DNA from: an uncultured Acidobacteriota bacterium
GTDB taxonomy: Bacteria > Acidobacteriota > Blastocatellia > RBC074
Length of the DNA: 64,000 nt
Assembly: GCA_963796275.1 (NCBI GenBank)
Contig: CAWCKY010000001.1
Coordinates: forward strand, 736,001-800,000
Reading direction: 5' to 3'
The notes below the pieces were generated by a model. The model saw only the letters and a list, made by a program, of their open reading frames with translations. It searched no databases and was not told the DNA's origin. The position numbers and the translations under genes were made by a program. Numbering within the stretch: the stretch's first letter is position 1; each line of letters starts with the position of its first letter. Shown piece after piece: positions 1,206 through 43,227 of the stretch.

Positions 1206-1461
1206 ATTTCACCTGCTATTCTAGAAATGAATTTAGCAAATATTGGGTAGTTGAATTTAATTTGATTGATTATATGTGACTTAAAGTAGATGGATAAAAA
1301 TGATTCATACTGTTTGATCGATTGTACCGTTTCCTATCATCTTTGATATGTGAAACAATGGGTGCGAGGGGTATGGAGCAACTGCCACAATCGATTTATC
1401 TCTGTTATAGCAATAGTTTAGCTATGCGAGTAGGGAAAAATACGGAGTCCGACCCCAGTAG

Positions 1462-1477
1462 TGGTACGGTCATTGCA
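1462..1477 (+). promoter_or_regulatory. Sigma-54 (-24/-12) promoter
   Basis: TGGTACGGTCATTGCA matches TGGYAC-N5-TTGCW, with an AT-rich region upstream (1205-1440). Confidence 0.7.
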
Positions 1478-1487
1478 CTTGGTATAT

Positions 1488-1655
1488 GCCGACAAGCAAT
1501 GCTTCAGCAGTTTAGGTACTCAAATACGGAAGATGTTGGGGGACATCTGCAACTGTCGCGAATGTGATCGTTGTGCCGTATAGAGATAGGATGGCTGCTC
1601 GACTCCGCATAGTTCTTGGGGGAGGCTATACGGAATTGAGCAGCCATTCTAGCAT
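1488..1655 (+). ncRNA. Candidate structured RNA (sRNA or 5' leader) with two TTGGGGGA hairpin loops
   Basis: Hairpin AGATGT-TGGGGG-ACATCT (1531-1548) inside a junction closed by ATACGG/CCGTAT (1524-1529/1576-1581); long hairpin 1587-1651; begins about 12 nt after the sigma-54 -12 GC. Confidence 0.5.
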
Positions 1656-1787
1656 TTCAGCCCACGTTTTCAGCGCAACCAATATTTCACGATCACTTAC
1701 ATATACGACTAATTTTTCGGCCAAGCCGGTAATTTTCCCATCTAAGGTTCTGTATATCTTAAAACCAACAGATGCTTGGAGGAGATA

Positions 1788-3560
1788 ATGGTGAGACGAT
1801 TAATGAAGTATTGCTCATTACTACTGGCTTTCAGTCTTTCCTCACCCCTGGGTCTCGCTCAGGAGATGAATCAAAAGAGCAAAAAGACGGTTGCCAAATC
1901 CAGTCTGAAGAATTTAACAGAAGAACAGAAGGCGGGTCACCTGATCGACCGCATCACATTTGGGCCTCGCCCCGGCGACCTTGAGCGGGTGATGAAGATC
2001 GGTTGGAAAAAATATCTGGAAGATCAGCTCAATCCCGATCGCATATCCGACAAGGTAGTCGAAGAGAAGTTAAAATCTCTAGATAGCGTTCATATGAGCA
2101 ATCGTGAATTGGCGCAGAACTACGTCCGGCCTCAAGTAGTTAGAAAAGCGCTCAAGTCGCGGGGAATGGATTTGCCCGGCAATGGTGGTGCAGCGGAAGC
2201 AAACGGGGCAAATGGGGTAACCGAGGCAACCCAGAATCCGCAGCAGATGGAAGCAGATGTCAGGGACAAACGCCGCGAGGCTATGAAGGTCCTGGCTGAG
2301 ATGGGATACAAGCCGCAACAACAGGTCGTACTGGAGTTGCAGCAGGCTAAGATACTGCGAGCGGTATACAGCGAGAGACAGCTTCAGTCGGTGATGACAG
2401 ATTTCTGGCTTAACCACTTCAACGTCTACATTCAAAAGGGGCCTGTTCGTATACTCGCGACGTCATATGAGCGGGACGTCATCAGTCCGCGCGTATTCGG
2501 CAAGTTCGAAGACCTGCTGCGCGCTACGGCTGAAAGCCCGGCTATGCTCTTTTACCTCGATAATTGGCTGAGCGCCATGCCGAATGCGAAGATGCAGGAG
2601 CGTAATCTTCGGCGGCAGGGTATGGTCAACAATAAAGGCAAAATTCCCAAACGAATTCGGAACGGGCTGAACGAGAACTATGCTCGCGAGATAATGGAAT
2701 TGCATACGCTAGGCGTGGACGGAGGATATACGCAGAAGGATGTGCAGGAAGTCGCGCGCTGTTTCACCGGCTGGACGCTCCGCACCCCGCGCGCTGGCGG
2801 CGAATTCTTCTTCAATCCGAATATCCACGATGATGGTGAGAAGGTAGTGCTGGGCCAGAAGATTCCGGCCGGAGGCGGCATGAAAGACGGAGAGGCCGTG
2901 ATCGAGCTGCTTGCGCATCATCCATCGACTGCTAAATTTATCTCGACCAAGCTTGCGCGCAAGTTCGTATCGGACAATCCGCCTCGCTCACTGGTCGACA
3001 TGATGGCGAAAACCTTCTTGAAGACGGATGGGGACATTCGCGAAGTATTGCGCGCGATGTTCAATTCACAGGAGTTCTGGGCGCCGGAGAACTATCGCAC
3101 CAAGATCAAAACCCCGTTTGAAATGACCGTCAGTGCTGTGCGGGTGCTGCACGGAGATACCAATGGGAATCAGCCTTTCCATCGCTGGATGAGACAGATG
3201 GGCGAGGGACTATTTTTAGCCCAGCCGCCCACCGGTTATCCGGACACTTCGGAGCATTGGGTCAATACCGGCGCTCTGCTAGAACGTATGAATTTCGCAC
3301 TGGCCTTGAGCGCCAATAAAATTCCGGGGACCCGCGTCGATCTGGCAGCCCTCGACGGGGGAGGCTCCACGGCGGGGTCTGCAGAAATCGTCGATCGTTA
3401 TGTTAAGCTTTTATTGAGAGGTGAAATATCGCCGCAATCGCGTGCAACGATCGATAAGGCGCTGAGCGAACAGAAGGTCGCTGTCGGCAATCAACCTGGG
3501 GTTGATGTCGCCCGAATAGCCGGTCTGATCCTCGGCTCACCCGAATTTCAAAGGCAGTGA
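1788..3560 (+). CDS. DUF1800 family protein with signal peptide
   Basis: HLIDRITFG, DFWLNHFNV, AMLFYLDN, NENYAREIMELHTLGV, GSPEFQRQ; GGAGGAG RBS before ATG 1788. Confidence 0.92.
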   Translation: MVRRLMKYCSLLLAFSLSSPLGLAQEMNQKSKKTVAKSSLKNLTEEQKAGHLIDRITFGPRPGDLERVMKIGWKKYLEDQLNPDRISDKVVEEKLKSLDSVHMSNRELAQNYVRPQVVRKALKSRGMDLPGNGGAAEANGANGVTEATQNPQQMEADVRDKRREAMKVLAEMGYKPQQQVVLELQQAKILRAVYSERQLQSVMTDFWLNHFNVYIQKGPVRILATSYERDVISPRVFGKFEDLLRATAESPAMLFYLDNWLSAMPNAKMQERNLRRQGMVNNKGKIPKRIRNGLNENYAREIMELHTLGVDGGYTQKDVQEVARCFTGWTLRTPRAGGEFFFNPNIHDDGEKVVLGQKIPAGGGMKDGEAVIELLAHHPSTAKFISTKLARKFVSDNPPRSLVDMMAKTFLKTDGDIREVLRAMFNSQEFWAPENYRTKIKTPFEMTVSAVRVLHGDTNGNQPFHRWMRQMGEGLFLAQPPTGYPDTSEHWVNTGALLERMNFALALSANKIPGTRVDLAALDGGGSTAGSAEIVDRYVKLLLRGEISPQSRATIDKALSEQKVAVGNQPGVDVARIAGLILGSPEFQRQ

Positions 3561-3577
3561 AAAGCAGGGGGGAAGTT

Positions 3578-4849
<1,272 letters not shown>

Positions 4850-41736: not shown

Positions 41737-43227
41737 ATGAATATGCCTAAATCGAGAATTCTGGTAATAGATGACGATATCAATGTCCTGGACCTGACGA
41801 GATTTCACCTCAGCAGGCACGGGACCGAGGCCACCACGGCCCAAAGCGGAGAAGATGCGCTCACATTGCTCTCTGAGAATCAGTACGATGTGGCGCTGAT
41901 AGACCTTAAACTGCCTGATATCGATGGGATTGATCTGGTCAGCCGCATCAAGGAGTTGTGGCCCGAGATCGAGATCATCGTGATTACCGGGTACAGCTCG
42001 GTGACCAAAGCCGTCGAAGCCACCAAGGCCGGCGCCTTTTATTTCGTCGAGAAACCTGTAAATTATGATGAATTATTGATCCTCATCGGCAAGGCGCTCG
42101 AACGTCGCGAGCAGACGACCGAGATCAAACAACTGCGCGGAAAACTGTCGGATAGAACCTCCTATTACAGTATCATCGGCAAGAGCAAGGCGATGCAGAA
42201 CATCTACGAGATCATCGACAGCGTCGCTCAGTCGGATGCGAACGTCCTGATAATGGGCGAATCGGGGACCGGTAAGGAGCTCGTCGCCAACGCCGTTCAC
42301 TACAAGAGCCTGCGGGGGAGGAAACCATTCGTCAAGATCAACTGCGCCGCTCTGCCTAAAGAATTGATTGAATCAGAGCTCTTCGGACATACCAAGGGAG
42401 CATTCACGGGCGCGGCCAAGGACAAGCAGGGATTGATCGGACAGGCGAACGGCGGCAGCCTTTTGATGGACGAGATCGGCGAGATGCCTTTGGGCCTGCA
42501 GCCGAAGCTGCTTCGCGTATTACAGGAGCGCGTCTATCTTCCACTGGGGAGCGATAAGCCGCAGGAGGTCGATTTCCGCCTGATCTGCGCCACCAACCTC
42601 AACCCGATCGAAGCAATCCGCAATGGTGCTTTGCGGGAAGACCTCTATTACCGGATTAATACCATCGAGATTCACGTGCCGCCCTTGCGCGAACGGGAAG
42701 AAGACGTGGAATACCTGGTCCAACATTTTATCCGCGTTTTCGCCGAGAAATATAATCGACCGATCCAGACGGCATCACAGGAGGCTTATGAGAAATTGTT
42801 CGCGTATAGCTGGCCCGGCAATGTCCGTGAATTACAGAATGTGGTCGAGCGCGCCGTCCTCATGACAAAAGGGACGACGATAGAGGGCAGTTCTTTGCCG
42901 CTCTCAAAAATCGTATTGAAGCCGGTCCAGGAGCAATCCAATTGGAGCCAATCGCACGGCTCAACTGCTGCCCCCTCGAACGGGCCTCAGCAGAAGGAAT
43001 TGGATTTCGACCAGCTATGCCGGCTGCTCGTCAGCCAGCTGACGCCTCCGGGCGTCGAAGGCGATTCTCAGAACATATTCGAAAAACTGGAAGGCGGCAT
43101 CGTTCAGGCAGCGCTTGAACGAACCAGAGGCAATAAGCAGGCGGCGGCCAATCTTCTCGGACTTTACCGGCCGCGTCTTTACAGCATCATCAAGAAACAC
43201 AACCTTTCTGATGCCGCTGGCACTTAA
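41737..43227 (+). CDS. Sigma-54-dependent NtrC-family response regulator
   Basis: REC domain, GESGTGKE, intact GAFTGA, WPGNVREL, Fis-type HTH. Confidence 0.95.
   Translation: MNMPKSRILVIDDDINVLDLTRFHLSRHGTEATTAQSGEDALTLLSENQYDVALIDLKLPDIDGIDLVSRIKELWPEIEIIVITGYSSVTKAVEATKAGAFYFVEKPVNYDELLILIGKALERREQTTEIKQLRGKLSDRTSYYSIIGKSKAMQNIYEIIDSVAQSDANVLIMGESGTGKELVANAVHYKSLRGRKPFVKINCAALPKELIESELFGHTKGAFTGAAKDKQGLIGQANGGSLLMDEIGEMPLGLQPKLLRVLQERVYLPLGSDKPQEVDFRLICATNLNPIEAIRNGALREDLYYRINTIEIHVPPLREREEDVEYLVQHFIRVFAEKYNRPIQTASQEAYEKLFAYSWPGNVRELQNVVERAVLMTKGTTIEGSSLPLSKIVLKPVQEQSNWSQSHGSTAAPSNGPQQKELDFDQLCRLLVSQLTPPGVEGDSQNIFEKLEGGIVQAALERTRGNKQAAANLLGLYRPRLYSIIKKHNLSDAAGT

Follow-up and report, generated by a model that had tools for sequence, protein, structure and literature searches.

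The Qrr1–5 RNAs are Hfq dependent, exist as paralogues with activator sites upstream of their promoters, share an invariant strand, and end in a hairpin with a U-rich tail. GlmY/GlmZ and CrcZ/CrcY, which serve as protein decoys, occur as paralogous or tandem copies and have sigma-54 promoters with an architecture of the integration host factor (IHF) type. The promoters of CsrB, RsmY and RsmZ are of the GacA type, and the 6C RNA of Actinobacteria has two hairpins with C-rich loops, the loops being its most conserved parts. Acidobacteria are among the most abundant bacteria of soil. In Vibrio, LuxO and sigma-54 drive the five Qrr RNAs, as a passage in a preprint states (bioRxiv 10.1101/2021.07.01.450815). 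Here we describe an RNA gene with a -24/-12 promoter element from an uncultured member of the Acidobacteriota (class Blastocatellia; assembly GCA_963796275.1). It lies within a 64-kb stretch of contig CAWCKY010000001.1, referred to below as the window; all positions are window coordinates unless a contig or locus is named.

A first-pass annotation of the window had proposed that a sigma-54 promoter at this place drives a novel structured small RNA. All of the sequence features that it named are present at the positions given, and several lines of evidence now lend the proposal strong support: the gene has paralogues and is conserved across the family, its promoter keeps a fixed position with enhancer-type elements upstream, the stems covary, and Rfam has no match. 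The feature at 1462–1660 is real, and the observation is confirmed. We infer that it is a previously undescribed regulatory RNA gene of ~165 nt with its own sigma-54 promoter and terminator, acting in the way proposed below. Its most conserved part, a 29-nt single strand at the 5' end, had been missed in the annotation.

Copies and taxonomic range

The locus occupies a 582-bp intergenic gap that runs from the stop codon of an HhH-GPD gene (480–1205) at 1205 to the start of a DUF1800 gene at 1788. The open reading frames (ORFs) inside this gap show no conservation among relatives, in agreement with the earlier description of a gap without a credible ORF. The genome (9.46 Mb in 7 contigs) contains three copies of the RNA, all of them with the promoter and ~190 bp of upstream sequence. 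Taking the window copy as 100%, the paralogue on contig C6 (C6:1783050) is 91% identical and that on contig C7 (C7:896106) is 85% identical, and the similarity extends from ~190 bp upstream of the promoter to ~10–25 nt past the long hairpin.

With BLAST, 13 of 24 additional genomes from this family yielded a homologue, and 16 genomes of other families in the class yielded none. A covariance model (R1) built from 19 sequences detected the RNA in 70 of the 87 genomes of this one Blastocatellia family, including 46 of the 55 of high quality, and in 13 of its 17 genera (all but g8, g9, g11 and g17), with 1–5 copies per genome that are often in tandem. The same model found no copy in 112 genomes from nine other families of the class, or in 149 genomes elsewhere in the phylum, outside the family; these ranges refer to sampled genomes searched with a single model, and absence means that the RNA was not found among those. 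An unpublished genome (G004) contributes one row to R1 and to the 19-row alignment (A2) discussed below, supplies one of the 57 unique copies and is counted in the genome tallies; none of our conclusions rests on it.

An exact-pattern scan of one genome per species (185,579 species) returned 44 stretches, of which 33 are labelled Acidobacteria/Acidobacteriota, Blastocatellia or Blastocatellales and 11 Heliomicrobium or Heliobacteriaceae. The metagenome contigs that carry the RNA under the latter labels include L065, L067, L072, L076, L078, L081, L082, L091, L095 and L098. At least one of these, L078, appears to be the same as G101:C663, which belongs to the window's own Blastocatellia family and agrees with it in length and match coordinates, and the labels look like a name-mapping error. 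Tandem arrays consist of two to three full units (promoter plus RNA) with a period of ~565–730 bp, situated upstream of DUF1800; examples are G013:C309:21575-22853, G048:C354:2341-3546, and G049:C305 and C183.

Comparison of positions 1100–1900 with Rfam 15 (cmscan, up to E = 10) gave only microRNA and small nucleolar RNA noise and no Qrr hit, and five homologous loci gave nothing at gathering thresholds. Within the portions of the literature available to us, we found no printed account of Blastocatellia small RNAs or of DUF1800–DUF1501 regulation.

Secondary structure and strand

Folding of 1488–1660 on the + strand recovered the three-way junction and the 65-nt hairpin that had been drawn in the first-pass annotation, with a free energy of -69.7 kcal/mol (z -5.5; none of 200 shuffles folded as well). 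The opposite strand also folds, less well (-58.2 kcal/mol). In the + strand fold, ATACGG (1524–1529) pairs with CCGTAT (1576–1581) and encloses P1a and P1b. The junction is followed by a long terminal hairpin, P2 (Table 1). One arm of the junction, P1b, is optional, and the short form of the RNA that lacks it folds with z -7.1.

The covariation of the stems is extensive. In the 19-row alignment (A2), 95.5% of the cells in the 39 base pairs are paired and 21 of the pairs have changed on both sides, compared with 1–7 in controls in which the pairing was slid, and none in 500 shuffles did as well. In a second alignment (A4), which consists of 54 distinct sequences fitted to the covariance model and omits G004, 94.8% of the cells are paired and 24 of the 39 pairs carry compensatory changes (slid controls, 3–10; shuffles, 0 of 500). 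The sequences in both alignments are related and thus not independent. Among the 54 sequences, changes on both sides affect 17 of the 28 pairs of P2 (in which 95.8% of the cells are paired), four of the five pairs of P1 and three of the six pairs of P1a. The apical pairs show only 0–4 departures, and because these pairs never vary, the two invariant apices, (G)UUGGGGGA(C) and UUCUUGGGGGAGG, may be open loops. As previously noted, both main hairpins carry the motif TTGGGGGA at the apex, at 1536–1543 and 1616–1623. This motif occurs four times in the window, where 1.45 occurrences are expected, and 8 of 100 shuffles also reached four.

The stems contain many G-U pairs, whose counterparts on the opposite strand would be mismatches of A with C, and covariance-model scores are 30–42 bits for the reverse strand against 130–180 bits for the forward strand (37.6 against 172.7 for the window copy). 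These G-U pairs and the difference in score show that the RNA is read on the + strand. For the nearly invariant 5' strand, no covarying pairing partner was found within the RNA. The annotation had also pointed to a recurrence of TACGGA at 1441, 1525 and 1629. The three occurrences are present, but their recurrence is not a feature of the family: the one at 1441 is kept only among the paralogues of this genome, and the similarity between the P1 and P2 strands (AUACGGA) disappears in the short variants.

Three genomes belonging to genus g2 (G003, G058 and G055) have an extra P2-type hairpin with a UUGGGGGAGG apex directly after the full RNA, at 1280–1348 (- strand) of locus L025, 5952–6021 (+ strand) of locus L064 and G055:C870:1881-1951. 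There the U-tail is absent from the first hairpin and present on the second, and the RNAs of these genomes probably carry three G-rich loops.

Two candidate small proteins were considered and rejected. The frame from the AUG at 1499 reads MLQQFR-stop in most relatives, is lost in G000 and G003, and shows no synonymous changes. The frame from the AUG at 1591, inside P2, has 65 codons in the window copy, but closes after three codons in the C6 copy and in G013. The 65-codon version, found in the window copy only, ends in TAATG (1786–1790), which overlaps the DUF1800 start; this overlap is probably meaningless.

Promoter and upstream region

The sequence TGGTACGGTCATTGCA, which the first-pass annotation had recognized as a -24/-12 site upstream of DUF1800, has a single departure (C to T) from TGGCAC-N5-TTGCW, the sigma-54 consensus, and its GG and GC doublets are canonically spaced. 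It is the sole match to TGGYAC-N5-TTGCW in the window (0.08 expected), and at least one match was found in 8 of 100 shuffles. Across the whole genome, the strict pattern has 40 matches compared with ~36 expected by a hand calculation that assumes equal base frequencies, which is about chance level. Because such single motifs are not beyond chance, the case for the feature rests on conservation.

Of the 57 unique copies, 56 keep the pattern TGG[CT]A[CT]-N5-[TC]TG[CT], which lies 25–27 nt ahead of the conserved RNA block, or at -18 by the anchor used in one divergent copy; the contig of the 57th copy offers only 11 nt upstream. The GG and TTGC do not vary among the copies, and the internal spacer and the 10–12 nt between the element and the block do, which is the pattern expected of a promoter. 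Likewise, in 11 of the 16 forward-strand BLAST rows from other genomes, the match starts at query positions 25–33, the -24 element being at 33. Transcription by sigma-54 RNA polymerase usually starts ~12 nt past the GC of the -12 element, and the family-wide conservation begins at 1490, 2 nt past the start predicted by this rule.

Two dyads and an IHF-like site lie further upstream (Table 1). In an upstream alignment of 55 copies, both dyads are positionally conserved. Regular expressions match dyad 1 in 26 of 56 copies (shuffle mean, 0.3) and dyad 2, which is present in all three paralogues, in 29 of 56 copies (shuffle mean, 0.1). The sequence CAA-N4-TTA, which resembles the IHF consensus, occurs in 36 of 56 copies, and in 25 of these it sits exactly at -74 from the conserved RNA block (shuffle mean, 1.2). 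These expressions were written post hoc, and kinship among the sequences inflates their contrast with the shuffles. A profile of both dyads placed the three RNA loci among its top four hits in the 9.46 Mb, and the fourth hit lacks a -24/-12 element; the search of the genome gave no further convincing site for a dyad regulon. Weak hits near two activator genes, one of which adjoins a gene with an N-terminus read by eye as that of glutamine synthetase, were judged to be noise.

The genome encodes RpoN (one Sigma54_DBD match, 198 bits), 49 matches to the Sigma54_activat domain and four genes of the HU/IHF family. No activator gene is present among the conserved neighbours, which encode HhH-GPD, AP endonuclease, BON-domain, DUF1800, DUF1501, SDR and dienelactone hydrolase proteins, and a search of the + strand at 1150–1900 gave no sigma-70-like promoter. 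The dyads, the IHF-like site and the -24/-12 element together suggest the classical architecture of an enhancer-dependent promoter, at which an activator would bind and transcription would depend on RpoN.

One match to the sigma-54 activator domain lies inside the window itself, at ~42172–42675. The size of the activator set stands in contrast to the strict -24/-12 pattern, which is only about as frequent in the genome as expected by chance; with 49 activator domains, most sigma-54 promoters of this organism must deviate from the strict pattern.

Table 1 Features of the RNA locus and its downstream neighbours (window coordinates)
Feature	Position	Strand	Remarks
Upstream dyad 1, TGGATAAAAATGATTCA	1291–1307	+	Consensus ~TGAAC-N7-GTTCA; centre ~-189 from predicted start; candidate site for an enhancer-binding protein
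Upstream dyad 2, TGTACCGTTTCCTATCA	1323–1339	+	Consensus TGTAnCrTTTnnnnTCA; centre ~-157; 32 bp centre-to-centre from dyad 1
T-rich tract and CAATAGTTTA	1396–1420	+	IHF-like (CAA-N4-TTA); between dyads and promoter; candidate bending site
-24/-12 (sigma-54) element, TGGTACGGTCATTGCA	1462–1477	+	Fixed distance in 56 of 57 unique copies; rpoN in genome
Predicted transcription start	1488	+	12 nt after the C of the -12 GC
5' single strand, CGACAAGCAAUGCUUCAGCAGUUUAGGUA	1490–1518	+	Nearly invariant in 19-row and 57-copy sets; candidate seed
Three-way junction	1519–1585	+	P1 (CUC/GAG and AUACGG/CCGUAU) around P1a and optional P1b
Hairpin P1a	1531–1548	+	Loop UUGGGGGA at 1536–1543
Arm P1b	1549–1574	+	Optional; missing in 9 of 19 aligned rows
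Linker, (U)AGAGAUAGG	1581–1590	+	Conserved; GAG 1583–1585 closes P1; last bases begin P2
Long hairpin P2, 65 nt	1587–1651	+	Invariant apex UUCUUGGGGGAGG; TTGGGGGA at 1616–1623; probable intrinsic terminator stem
3' tail, GCAUUUCAG	1652–1665	+	Weak in window copy; U-rich in most relatives
Promoter-like element of DUF1800 operon (outside RNA)	1712–1745	+	T-rich tract, CCAA 1721–1724, 16-nt spacer, TCTAA 1741–1745
DUF1800 gene	1788–3560	+	Pfam E-value 6e-145; conserved downstream neighbour
DUF1501 gene	3557–4849	+	Pfam E-value 3.2e-39; conserved downstream neighbour

With three paralogues, detection in 70 of the family's 87 genomes, an invariant promoter, invariant loops and 5' strand, and covarying stems, the feature is above chance.

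Proposed mode of action

Our preferred interpretation, to which we assign a probability of roughly one half, is that 1291–1665 forms a self-contained gene whose product is a regulatory RNA acting in trans, most likely assisted by Hfq and pairing through its 5' strand. The sequence comparisons establish the conservation, promoter architecture, secondary structure, strand, copy number and taxonomic range of the RNA, whereas its transcription start and termination, its dependence on sigma-54, its action in trans and the parts played by Hfq and the seed belong to the model. In this model, an enhancer-binding protein would bind the two dyads ~190 and 157 bp upstream, and an IHF-like bend would bring it to the sigma-54 RNA polymerase at the -24/-12 element. 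Transcription would start near 1488 and stop at hairpin P2 with its U-rich tail. The product would act in trans, most likely by Hfq-assisted base pairing, its contacts being the 5' strand and the two G-rich loops, and the three copies present here (1–5 in relatives) would give dosage or redundancy, as in the Qrr RNAs. The genome has an Hfq gene (89.9 bits) which, together with the conserved 5' strand and the U-tails, makes up the set of genes and features looked for in a small RNA of the Hfq-dependent kind.

The searches for targets weigh against this interpretation, as do the post hoc nature of the upstream expressions noted above and the points in favour of a leader given below. Among 10,047 predicted start regions, the best duplex with the 5' strand has -29.9 kcal/mol, compared with -30.9 to -32.2 kcal/mol for four shuffled queries. 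The complement of the loop (TCCCCCAA and variants) occurs at gene starts 21 times in sense and 14 times in antisense orientation against 14.1 expected; the small RNA for C-rich targets suggested in the first-pass annotation is a possible reading, but loop complements are not enriched at gene starts. Pairing of three RNA segments with the 5' region of DUF1800 in 34 genomes gave mean z values of -0.18, 0.42 and 0.09, which is no more complementarity than in shuffles. The longest exact complement (15 nt, at C1:75302) was rejected, having no downstream ORF and no conservation in 40 relatives. All of these scans are crude, in that accessibility was ignored, gene starts were roughly predicted and the start-region scan was made on one genome, and they leave room for pairing.

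Exact 12-mer complements of the RNA number 232 genome-wide, which we judged to be near chance, and those of the 5' region number ~20 compared with ~22 expected by our own estimate. Seven-letter words complementary to the seed recur in the DUF1800–DUF1501 operon in 8–9 of 11 genomes; they were discounted as candidate sites, since they lie at orthologous coding positions and reflect shared ancestry. One seed-complement site after the stop codon of the operon is absent from G000.

The negative outcome of the hunts for base-pairing targets counts in favour of a second explanation, in which the RNA is a decoy whose Shine–Dalgarno-like, G-rich loops bind a protein that recognizes ribosome-binding sites, or the 3' end of 16S rRNA, following the logic of CsrB without CsrA. 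Such a role would account for the invariance of UUGGGGGA at both apices and would suit a loop-bearing module that can be duplicated, as in the extra P2-type hairpin of the three g2 genomes. Furthermore, GGAGG at the P2 apex is predicted to form a duplex of -10.9 kcal/mol with the 3' end of the organism's own 16S rRNA, close to the -11.4 kcal/mol of the DUF1800 ribosome-binding site. However, that duplex does not exceed an ordinary ribosome-binding site in strength, the number of loops, two, is low for a sponge, and the most conserved part of the RNA, the 29-nt 5' strand, would be left unexplained. CsrA (PF02599) has no match in this genome, which is 94.7% complete and did return the positive controls, and no further candidate for a binding protein is known. 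We regard a decoy as unlikely. The CsrB/RsmY-type sponge put forward in the first-pass annotation is not supported as such, because no CsrA gene was found in the genome and there are only two loop motifs (three in a few relatives).

Relationship to the DUF1800–DUF1501 operon

A third explanation, that the RNA is a cis-acting leader or attenuator, would have the sigma-54 promoter serve DUF1800–DUF1501, with P2 as a regulated terminator and read-through setting expression. One point in its support, which also counts against a self-contained gene, is synteny: a DUF1800-like ORF on the same strand, followed by DUF1501, lies a short way downstream of 45 of the 57 unique copies. The nearest boundary of the DUF1800 ORF is at -122 to +292 bp for single copies and for the last copies of arrays, and at up to 1,104 bp for upstream array members; an HhH-GPD gene lies 212–463 bp upstream of single copies and of first array copies. 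In genus g8, the RNA was found in none of nine genomes, and no DUF1800 homologue was found in the two g8 genomes searched; this co-absence is compatible with a functional link between the RNA and DUF1800.

Of the 12 remaining copies, nine are cut short by locus or contig ends or are themselves upstream members of tandem arrays, and three tell in the other direction: the C6 and C7 copies and that of G050:C5 have at least 1.4 kb of downstream sequence with no DUF1800 gene. The C6 copy is flanked by a divergent SpoIIE-type gene and a convergent GH2 gene, and the C7 copy by Laminin_G_3 and epoxide hydrolase genes. Despite these unrelated neighbours, both dispersed copies retain the dyads, the promoter, the structure and the tail, and the copies without DUF1800 as a group retain promoter, dyads and structure. 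Each unit of a tandem array carries a promoter and a U-tail of its own.

The operon also has a promoter-like element of its own between P2 and DUF1800 (1712–1745; Table 1). Its core, CCAA-N16-TCTAA, keeps exactly 16 nt of spacing across genera, with GTCA ~8 nt after TCTAA, and also precedes DUF1800 in G018 and G010, two genomes without the RNA in which another gene is the upstream neighbour; in its two blocks with constant spacing the element looks like a promoter. Because this element persists without the RNA, and because three copies of the RNA are found in other contexts, the RNA is more probably an independent small RNA than a leader, and the DUF1800/DUF1501 leader offered as an option in the first-pass annotation is the weaker one. 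The 1712–1745 element resembles promoters of extracytoplasmic function (ECF) sigma factors. The same element is seen at ~3225–3262 (- strand) of locus L111 and ~1366–1395 of L112. The bare CCAA-N16-TCTAA pattern is rare in this genome, with 19 matches and no preference for that spacing, so that the element may belong to a small regulon, for example of an ECF-type sigma factor.

The sequence downstream of P2 bears on the same question. Within the 9 nt after the P2 stem, at least four U are present in 47 of 54 copies and at least five in 41 of 54, so that the family shows the stable stem-loop followed by a U run that is looked for in an intrinsic terminator. Two U-poor cases are the g2 loci L025 (G003) and L064, where the extra hairpin bears the U-run. 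The window copy has three U in 9 nt, and this weak tail, which favours a leader, leaves room for read-through or a cis role. A simple terminator scan (at most 20 pairs counted, loop of 3–8, at least five T in eight) did not list P2. An invariant hairpin apex would be unusual for a mere expression platform, and no conserved competing (antiterminator) pairing was seen in A2, which was judged by eye only; the candidate alternative pairings (the P1 strand with the 5' arm of P2, and CAGCAG with GGCUGCU) show no covariation, and the AUACGGA similarity that might underlie the former is, again by eye, gone in the short variants.

RNA libraries provide one more observation on the side of a leader. In each of four runs from one study, a single contig corresponds to the copy of a relative, with a similarity to the window below 90%. 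These contigs span ~1498–1530 to 1650 and then continue for 53–78 nt of unlike sequence past the hairpin. They establish that the relative's copy is present in RNA libraries, which may include DNA, and are uninformative on transcription or on the ends of the RNA. In these runs (X3–X6), no contig covers 1300–1497 or reaches past the unlike tails; the empty stretch ahead of 1488 does not speak for a start there, since assembly graphs would break at the invariant 5' block anyway. A search of sequencing runs returned only runs with a small share (0.08) of the words. In run X5, a 1015-nt RNA-library contig with a depth of 244 joins 796 nt of unrelated sequence at the equivalent of position 1514, which points either to a chimeric contig or to an arrangement that differs in the organism concerned.

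On balance we consider a role as leader decidedly unlikely, and retain the self-contained, trans-acting RNA as the preferred interpretation; some read-through from the sigma-54 promoter into the operon is possible, especially at the window copy. That the locus is instead a repeated palindrome or what is left of a mobile element, its promoter-like motif being due to chance, as the near-chance count of the strict -24/-12 pattern and the stable fold of the - strand might suggest, is extremely improbable, given only three copies in 9.46 Mb, all with the promoter rather than the many promoterless copies of a high-copy palindromic repeat (REP), synteny conserved across 13 genera, a promoter kept in 56 of 57 copies, covariation with G-U pairs specific to the + strand, and conserved neighbours that showed neither terminal repeats nor a transposase.

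Comparison with known systems

The 6C RNA is similar to the RNA described here in having two hairpins that share a homopolymer-rich loop motif. In contrast to 6C, the loops of the present RNA are G-rich, so that a partner would be C/U-rich; the taxon and the promoter type also differ, and there is no Rfam match. CsrB, RsmY and RsmZ share with it a short motif repeated in hairpin loops, with GGA contained in GGGGGA. They differ in that no gene for CsrA was found in the present genome, in the number of loops (two here, three in some relatives), in the sigma-54-type promoter found here as opposed to one of the GacA type, and in the lack of an Rfam match. GlmY/GlmZ and CrcZ/CrcY are alike in their enhancer-dependent sigma-54 promoters and multiple copies, whereas Rfam shows no match to them and the A-rich Hfq/Crc motifs of CrcZ are absent from this RNA.

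The sigma-54 activator sets of these genomes are very large, as the 49 domain matches found here illustrate, and their targets are mostly unassigned. The locus offers a promoter with recognizable activator sites that can be used to find the regulator, and a covariation-supported RNA family that is ready for Rfam. It also flags the widespread, uncharacterized DUF1800–DUF1501 pair as a possible functional partner. Judged from its sequence, the family would be a new sigma-54-dependent family of small RNAs, and would thereby add one more member to those that are enhancer dependent.

The closest parallels are with the Qrr RNAs. Like these, the RNA has a sigma-54-type promoter with upstream activator sites (the candidate dyads), several paralogues (1–5 copies per genome), and a long invariant single strand in all copies together with a terminal hairpin and U-tail. 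In addition, the upstream dyads seem to be devoted to the RNA genes, since their profile finds essentially only the three RNA loci. Unlike the Qrr RNAs, the RNA belongs to another phylum, is longer (~150–180 nt), and has a three-way junction and two G-rich loops; there is no match to Qrr in sequence or structure, and no Rfam family rises above noise. A more speculative proposal, and one we hold only tentatively, is that of a LuxO–Qrr-type circuit in Acidobacteria, in which one of ~45 enhancer-binding proteins would directly target only the 1–5 RNA copies, and the RNA would convert an environmental or population signal into a post-transcriptional programme; its loops might be CsrA-independent Shine–Dalgarno decoys, in place of classical pairing by a seed. 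The family provides a test case for an independent origin of multicopy, enhancer-driven small RNAs of the Qrr-like kind outside Proteobacteria, and by analogy it is the Qrr RNAs, among known systems, that this RNA would most resemble in the way it works.

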